Shown in pieces: positions 34,991 through 35,992 of a DNA stretch of 64,000 nucleotides. Numbering within the stretch: the first letter of the stretch is position 1; the number at the start of each line of letters is the position of its first letter. This stretch comes from Escherichia phage EcWhh-1. The position numbers and the translations under genes are program-made. Under the pieces are notes generated by a model. The model made no database searches, was not told the origin of the DNA, and saw only the letters and a program-made list of their open reading frames with translations. Location: sequence record MH791409.1; one strand, 5' to 3'.

Positions 34991-35798
34991 GGACCATATG
35001 CTCTGTTACCCAATGAAGCTGTAATGTCGTGCTCCAATCAGAGAATCCTTCAGGCCAATTAATTTCCAGTTCACAAAGCTCTTTAGGCTCACGACGAAGA
35101 ACTTCTTGACATTGTTCAACGTGGTTAGAATAGATGTGCGTATTGCCGCCTGAGAACACTAAATCGCCAGGAATAAGATTACACATCTTAGCTACAATAT
35201 GCACAAGAGCGGCGTAAGAGGCGATATTAAATGGCAATCCTAAGAACACGTCAACAGAACGCTGATACCACTGGAGGTCAAGATGGCCGTTACGAACGTT
35301 GAACTGGTAAAAGCAATGGCAAGGCGGAAGAGCCATCCGGTTGATTTCAGCCGGGTTCCATGCAGATACGATTTGACGACGGTCGTTAGGCATCTTTTTA
35401 ATGCGGTCGATAATTTCTACAACCTGGTCGACACCACCAAAATCTCGCCATTGTTTACCGTATACAGGACCCAGTTCGCCGCTATGATAGCCAAGGTCTT
35501 TAGCTTGGTTTTCATAGTTTTCGTCCCAAATAGTTTTACCACCAATTAATGAACCGTGAGTACGTAAACGAAGGTCGTTAACGTTTGTTGAACCCGAAAG
35601 GAACCAAAGGAGCTCAGCAATGCAGGCTTTCCATGCTAATTTTTTAGTTGTTACTGCAGGAAAGCCTTTAGTTAAATCAAAACGTAATTTAGTACCGAAC
35701 AGTGCAATTGTACCGGTGCCGGTACGGTCGTCGGTTTCGTAGCCATTTTCCAGGATATCTTTAATTAAAAATTGGTATTGTTTCATTAGTTCATCCAA
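34926..35798 (-). CDS. td: thymidylate synthase (uninterrupted, no intron)
   Basis: 290 aa; near-identical to T4 Td as recalled, continuous ORF. Confidence 0.92.
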   Translation of the reverse strand: MDELMKQYQFLIKDILENGYETDDRTGTGTIALFGTKLRFDLTKGFPAVTTKKLAWKACIAELLWFLSGSTNVNDLRLRTHGSLIGGKTIWDENYENQAKDLGYHSGELGPVYGKQWRDFGGVDQVVEIIDRIKKMPNDRRQIVSAWNPAEINRMALPPCHCFYQFNVRNGHLDLQWYQRSVDVFLGLPFNIASYAALVHIVAKMCNLIPGDLVFSGGNTHIYSNHVEQCQEVLRREPKELCELEINWPEGFSDWSTTLQLHWVTEHMVHEDFKLIGYESHPTIKAKMAV

Positions 35799-35992
35799 GA
35801 ATATGTAGAAGGATATTTGGCAAAGTTAGGCTTATATCCTAATTTAACCATTTGTTTTGCTTTGCGGGTAAATCCTAAAGAACGCTCGCCTTTAAGATAC
35901 TGTTTTGGTGTCATATGCCCTTGATGCATCTGCCGGCAAATAAAAAGGGCCATAGCATTAGGAACATCCTTAACTTTTAATTTATTGCTCAT
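35786..35992 (-). CDS. small basic protein inserted between frd and td
   Basis: 68-aa ORF overlapping the td start and the frd stop; T4 has frd directly next to td. Confidence 0.45.

Follow-up and report, generated by a model that had tools for sequence, protein, structure and literature searches.

In bacteriophage T4, the dihydrofolate reductase gene frd and the thymidylate synthase gene td form an overlapping gene pair joined by the sequence ATGA, as Purohit and Mathews reportedly described in 1984. In this study, we analyzed a 64,000-nucleotide stretch of DNA from Escherichia phage EcWhh-1 (sequence record MH791409.1; hereafter, the window), in which an open reading frame (ORF) encoding 68 amino acids (35786..35992, minus strand) lies between the two genes. 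On the evidence of its conservation, this ORF is a genuine protein-coding accessory gene that T4-type phages can do without; we call it dispensable because T4, the Dhakavirus QL01, and most Tequatroviruses lack it and yet keep frd and td. The gene is not new. It is an already known phage gene of the family phrog_9550, found in over 200 publicly available phage genomes, where it is mostly labelled hypothetical protein; these entries represent the same gene, with the same length and, in T4-type phages, the same position upstream of td. A search of the literature on the peptide, on phrog_9550, and on JS98/frd found nothing specific. Window bases 34900–36600 are 99.7% identical to phage vB_EcoM_IME281, and the window comes from a Dhakavirus, a T-even phage resembling JS98.

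Conservation and annotation of the 68-residue gene

The ORF begins with ATG, and its coordinates, its translation, and its overlaps with both neighboring genes are exactly as given in the initial annotation, which had regarded it as a real gene. When the peptide was searched against protein databases, it matched the phrog_9550 hidden Markov model (HMM) from end to end (residues 1–68 on profile positions 1–68 of 68, E-value 4.2e-45). Matches by tblastn were obtained in 237 phage records, with coverage of at least 80% in 235 of them. Amino acid identity is 99–100% among Dhakavirus copies, 95–98.5% in Tequatrovirus copies, 77–79% in Klebsiella Marfavirus-type phages, 68% in Enterobacter phage CIP9 (Kanagawavirus), and 60% in Serratia phage 4S. 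More distant homologs of 76–77 residues, with 43% identity, are found in phAPEC8 and others of the unrelated Phapecoctavirus group. The ratio of nonsynonymous to synonymous substitution rates (dN/dS) is 0.10–0.28 in comparisons with Marfa, CIP9, and 4S by the Nei–Gojobori method, at a synonymous divergence (dS) of at least 1, which is saturated. The N-terminal pattern M-S/K-N/G-N-K-x-K-V..V-P and the LGY-x-P motif are kept in the homolog alignments, and all insertions and deletions (indels) are in frame. Positions common to independent members are N3, K4, K6, V7, P11, L16, R20, G40, M48, L51-G52-Y53, and P55. The length of family members stays within 68–77 residues under purifying selection, including those from unrelated phages, and the homologs in phAPEC8 and in metagenomic locus L009 are each preceded by an AAGGAGG Shine-Dalgarno sequence of their own.

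A chance ORF in a noncoding spacer could be suspected, because the reading frame is short and because the record of the closest relative, IME281, contains only a 42-residue fragment and the JS98 record has nothing at this position. However, this reading is effectively refuted: the gene is conserved over its full length across genera, its dN/dS falls far short of 1, its indels preserve the frame, and the distant homologs have Shine-Dalgarno sequences independently. Among the related phages compared, none combined the same frd–td spacing with the absence of a conserved frame. Conservation, purifying selection, and invariant synteny directly upstream of td in five T4-type genera thus bear out the original proposal of a real gene inside the frd–td transcription unit.

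Public records differ in how they treat the gene. The full frame is annotated in fPS-65 (g232c, YP_010091538.1), Marfa (gp177, YP_009850431.1), CIP9 (gp059), and Serratia phage 4S (MYO4S_00122). In IME281 (MH051913) and ACG-C40 (JN986846), only a C-terminal fragment of 42 residues starting at Met27 is annotated, and in JS98 (EF469154), the gene carries no annotation; the copies in IME281, FB, and JS98 are nevertheless 100% identical to the window protein at the amino acid level. Residues 1–26 are conserved, and therefore the full 68-residue frame is the gene. The practical value of the present analysis lies in this annotation: the conserved frame is the full 68 residues, not 42. The phAPEC8-type homologs (e.g., phAPEC8_0028) have a longer loop than the T4-type copies, a Shine-Dalgarno sequence of their own, and neither td nor frd as a neighbor.

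The family is real but narrow. When 1.84 billion cluster representatives were searched exhaustively with the HMM, only 11 clusters were obtained, whose proteins are 70–96 residues long except for one match of 1402 residues. The latter (P0025) covers only profile positions 9–28, in six stretches, and is treated as probably spurious. A scan of IMG/VR added only T4-type and phAPEC8-type loci.

Layout and expression of the frd–td gene string

The 68-residue gene is part of a minus-strand string of overlapping genes, consisting of a 113-residue accessory gene, frd, the 68-residue gene, and td, after which the gene for a DUF4326 protein and nrdA follow. The frd gene (35989..36570, minus strand) was identified by Pfam DHFR_1 (E-value 2.5e-18) and phrog_316. 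The td gene (34926..35786, minus strand) has no intron, matches Pfam Thymidylat_synt (E-value 3.5e-98), and encodes the N-terminus MKQYQ, as in T4; the TTG start at 35798 is an artefact of the ORF-listing program, and the T4-homologous start is the ATG at 35786. The stop codon of frd (TGA, 35991–35989) and the start codon of the 68-residue gene (ATG, 35992–35990) overlap as ATGA. At the other end, the stop codon of the 68-residue gene (TAA, 35788–35786) and the start codon of td (ATG, 35786–35784) have one base in common, as TAATG. The alignment with T4 shows that frd and td overlap directly in that phage, in line with the adjacency stated when the ORF was first described. The same stop/start logic is thus used in both phages, here with ATGA at the 5′ end of the cassette and TAATG at its 3′ end; T4 differs in having no gene between frd and td and in carrying the I-TevI intron in td.

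The 68-residue gene has the features of an operon member: it lies on the same strand as its neighbors, has stop/start overlaps on both sides, and is part of a segment (frd–ORF–td, minus strand, 34926–36570) with no match to a sigma-70-like promoter or an intrinsic terminator. The sequence preceding its ATG (ACGGAAACAGTATACAA) contains no well-spaced Shine-Dalgarno sequence. RNA folding around both junctions gave nothing notable (z-scores of 0.55–0.70), and Rfam had no match at the locus. The only same-strand promoter match in 34400..37300 is a sigma-70-like site (TTGCTA-17-TATAAT, 36907..36935, minus strand) upstream of the 113-residue gene. This site does no more than resemble the consensus, and shuffled sequence is expected to give the same number of matches. 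The most economical reading of this layout is that the 68-residue gene is co-transcribed with frd and td and translated by termination–reinitiation. The translational coupling proposed in the initial annotation fits the sequence, which has no good Shine-Dalgarno sequence before the ATG and no promoter, terminator, or RNA structure inside frd–ORF–td. Under such a mechanism, the gene would be carried on the prereplicative frd–td–nrdA message, and ribosomes terminating on frd would restart on the 68-residue gene and, after finishing there, restart on td. The cassette would thereby preserve the coupling from frd to td that T4 has directly.

The 113-residue gene (36567..36908, minus strand; phrog_8592) is the first in the co-oriented overlapping string; it has no Pfam match, and its stop codon overlaps the frd start codon as ATGA. 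Downstream, the DUF4326 protein gene (34571..34990, minus strand, as the longest ORF) occupies the NrdA.1 position between td and nrdA. This longest ORF runs 65 nucleotides into the 3′ end of td, and the true start of the gene is probably an internal Met, because the gene annotated in IME281 is 294 nucleotides long.

Variants of the frd–td junction

Compared with T4 and with the Dhakavirus QL01, the window contains exactly 206 extra bases between frd and td. As the alignment with these two empty sites and the junction sequences show, the indel is bounded by a direct repeat, AATGA, with an upstream copy at 35989..35993 and a downstream copy at 35783..35787 (both minus strand); the empty sites retain a single copy, which forms the frd/td ATGA overlap. 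Among the best 40 Dhakavirus-level records, the 206 bases are present in 18 (H1–H18) and probably in one more (H19), and they are absent from the other 21, including QL01, WG01, Bp7, MX01, and IME08. Three states of the junction were found in Tequatrovirus, from which 30 of 515 records were sampled at even spacing: two were empty (T4 and G2133), about 19 had an insert of approximately 416 nucleotides, and seven had the 206-nucleotide gene. The larger insert, which is that of T6 and most other Tequatroviruses, encodes a 115-residue phrog_1928 protein and is bounded by a repeat of the junction sequence, AAATGAAA. The phrog_1928 gene of T6 therefore resembles the 68-residue gene in its location at the same junction and in being an insertion bounded by a junction repeat. 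However, it is unrelated in sequence, its product is not rich in basic residues, and it is flanked by intergenic spacers instead of overlaps.

Both genes occur together, in the order frd–phrog_1928–68-residue gene–td, in Marfavirus (Marfa), Kanagawavirus (CIP9), and Serratia phage 4S, and CIP9 has two copies of phrog_1928 between frd and the 68-residue gene. In the metagenomic locus L011, a 60%-identical homolog of the 68-residue protein is encoded before frd and overlaps the frd start, with a phrog_1928 gene downstream of frd. The phrog_1928 genes that we located (L030, 1374..1721, from T6; L006, 2643..2996; L007, 2326..3004; L008, 2624..3004; L011, 1839..2285) encode proteins of 111–148 residues with a conserved C-terminal GRFxKxGxxxYF motif. 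The phrog_1928 protein has no Pfam match and no meaningful PDB sequence match, and we discarded this neighbor as a functional clue.

The comparison of the junction in related phages thus placed the 68-residue gene in Dhakavirus, Tequatrovirus, Marfavirus, Kanagawavirus, and phage 4S. Its description as an extra ORF is correct relative to T4 but does not hold more widely, as the direct frd–td junction of T4 is a minority state and probably a derived one. The simplest history suggested by these arrangements is an older gene order, frd–phrog_1928–phrog_9550–td, from which lineages then lost one or both genes: T6-type phages would have kept phrog_1928, the Dhakavirus of the window phrog_9550, and T4 and QL01 neither. 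With AATGA repeats at both ends, precise loss or gain of the 206-nucleotide unit would leave the neighboring genes intact. The slot upstream of frd is also polymorphic. The 113-residue gene is absent from QL01 and T4, and Tequatroviruses have unrelated genes at this position, namely an 81-residue phrog_3183 gene or, in T6, a 119-residue DUF7247 gene.

Sequence divergence at the junction indicates a recent transfer of the 68-residue gene between genera. Between the window and the Tequatrovirus ACG-C40, the gene is 97% identical at the DNA level, with a dS of 0.11, whereas the flanking frd and td are approximately 79% identical, with dS values of 0.96 and 2.2, respectively. Five substitutions are common to all six Tequatrovirus copies examined, and in the same six copies, the first 37–49 nucleotides of td are of the Dhakavirus type, so that Td begins with 12 Dhakavirus-type residues and not with the T4/T6 sequence MKQYQDLIKDIF. 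The upstream crossover in the Tequatrovirus copies lies inside AAATGA at the frd stop. The common substitutions, the Dhakavirus-type tract at the 5′ end of td, and the crossover at the frd stop together suggest that a Dhakavirus-like donor contributed the gene once and that it then spread among Tequatroviruses, reaching phages with the td intron as well as phages without it. The Dhakavirus-type copy has recently moved into Tequatrovirus by recombination, along with the first 40–50 nucleotides of td. The resulting Td is chimeric, with the first 12–16 codons or so of the Dhakavirus type and the rest of the Tequatrovirus type (L002, 3207..3260; equivalents in L012–L016), and this chimera occurs in both intron-containing and intronless td alleles. 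The guanine and cytosine (GC) content of the 68-residue gene, 36% compared with 39% for the window, gives no signal of foreign composition relative to the window.

Within Dhakavirus, the last 100 nucleotides of frd, the ORF, and the first 60 nucleotides of td form an island of 92–100% identity (mostly 98–100%), compared with 82–95% in the rest of frd and td. This pattern suggests a recent event, either a sweep by recombination or a precise deletion. The island corresponds to approximately 35727..36088 (minus strand) of the window in comparisons with JS98 (L017), IME341 (L019), and QL01 (L003); QL01, which lacks the ORF, has the same conserved flanks.

An optional gene that sits between conserved genes, is polymorphic in presence and absence, and has co-converted flanking td sequence might be a mobile cassette of the selfish kind, or what is left of a decayed seg- or mob-type free-standing homing endonuclease that once targeted the frd–td junction. 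The seg/mob cassettes of T-even phages are likewise optional genes between core genes that spread with co-conversion of adjacent sequence, and the alternative occupant of the junction, the T6-type gene, is labelled putative homing endonuclease in the BASEL phage Bas35. However, 25 family members scanned with Pfam and NCBIfam showed no nuclease domain, whether GIY-YIG, HNH, LAGLIDADG, or another, and, at 68 residues, the protein is too small to resemble the products of such cassettes. Its length is conserved under purifying selection also in unrelated phages, and the phrog_1928 protein itself lacks a Pfam match. Moreover, the 68-residue cassette, unlike the seg/mob cassettes, needs only ordinary homologous or microhomology recombination for its transfer. 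We rejected the remnant for want of a nuclease motif and regard this origin as very improbable.

Possible roles of the product

The predicted product is a protein of 7.9 kDa with an isoelectric point of 10.26 and 13 Lys and Arg residues against 2 Asp and Glu, in agreement with its original description as basic. Two AlphaFold2 (AF2) models were obtained, with predicted local distance difference test (pLDDT) scores of 68 and 78.6. The latter, based on a 25-sequence alignment, contains helices at residues 13–24, 29–38, and 43–50, together with a lysine-rich N-terminal arm and an extended aromatic C-terminal tail. Structure comparison with the AF2 models told little, with no fold match, and a profile search of PDB sequences returned only a spurious match with an E-value of 1.4. 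No helix-turn-helix or other small DNA-binding domain was matched significantly, whether by sequence or by fold. Scans of the ORF and 25 family members with Pfam, NCBIfam, and PADLOC gave no match, although PADLOC covers defence proteins and not anti-defence proteins, and its null result says little about counter-defence. In phAPEC8, L009, L027, and L028, which represent other large lytic phages, the distant homologs are grouped with further small hypothetical genes, and the one in L028 adjoins a gene for a PIF1-type helicase. No td or frd is present within 4–5 kb of the phAPEC8-type, L009, L027, or L028 homologs. With low confidence, we suggest that the product is most likely a regulatory or host-takeover factor that acts early in infection by binding either nucleic acid or an acidic partner.

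The position of the gene raises the question of whether it serves thymidylate synthesis, as the operon named in the initial annotation might imply. A dedicated factor that binds or regulates Td, Frd, or the T4 deoxynucleoside triphosphate (dNTP) synthetase complex would explain the linkage to td. Indeed, although synonymous divergence is saturated, the gene has kept its place directly upstream of td, with overlapping stop and start codons, in Dhakavirus, Tequatrovirus, Marfavirus, Kanagawavirus, and phage 4S, and the L011 homolog overlaps the start of frd. However, the phages that keep frd and td without the gene, and the homologs placed among unrelated small genes, speak against such a factor, and the conserved order of the frd–td–nrdA core alone can account for the adjacency. 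A dedicated thymidylate role is possible but disfavored, and we consider it unlikely: phages can dispense with the gene, and outside the T4-type phages it is not linked to td or frd. A link of the protein function to thymidylate synthesis is not supported by the available genomes, since the distant homologs lie away from td and frd, and the product is probably neither an enzyme nor a subunit in the synthesis of deoxythymidine monophosphate (dTMP).

Alternatively, the product may be a counter-defence or host-takeover inhibitor that binds a host protein, with selection by host defences causing the patchy distribution and the transfers. The presence/absence polymorphism within genera, the recent move from Dhakavirus to Tequatrovirus, the small size, and the grouping, in other large lytic phages, with small hypothetical genes that are probably early ones are in line with this role. 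Acidic mimicry of DNA is common among the well-known small anti-defence proteins. The strongly basic product is unlike these, and it has no similarity to any characterized protein; we regard a counter-defence role as a reasonable alternative of rather low probability. A narrower and rather improbable variant is that the 68-residue protein, alone or with the phrog_1928 protein, is a small basic effector guarding the phage dNTP/dTMP supply. By analogy with T7 gp1.2, which inhibits the host dGTPase, it might neutralize a host defence that depletes nucleotides or senses DNA precursors. If this were true, selection by such host factors would explain the exchange between genera. In a family as narrow as this one, a functional discovery is possible, and nothing here points to one.

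Taken as a whole, the account given here, of an accessory gene with a coupled layout, a history of the junction as a slot, an intergenus transfer, and a small basic product, appears probable to us. Two points weigh against it. In all T4-type lineages examined, L011 among them, the gene invariably adjoins td or frd, which might reflect a functional link, although we discount one, and the ancestral order of the gene pair rests on a handful of genera with no rooted phylogeny.

The variants of the slot, the AATGA-bounded cassette, and the move between genera are typical of accessory-gene dynamics in T-even phages. The reference phage T4 is atypical at the frd–td junction. The locus is a small, clean illustration of how optional genes replace one another at a fixed junction in T-even phages while the coupling of the essential neighbors would remain undisturbed.
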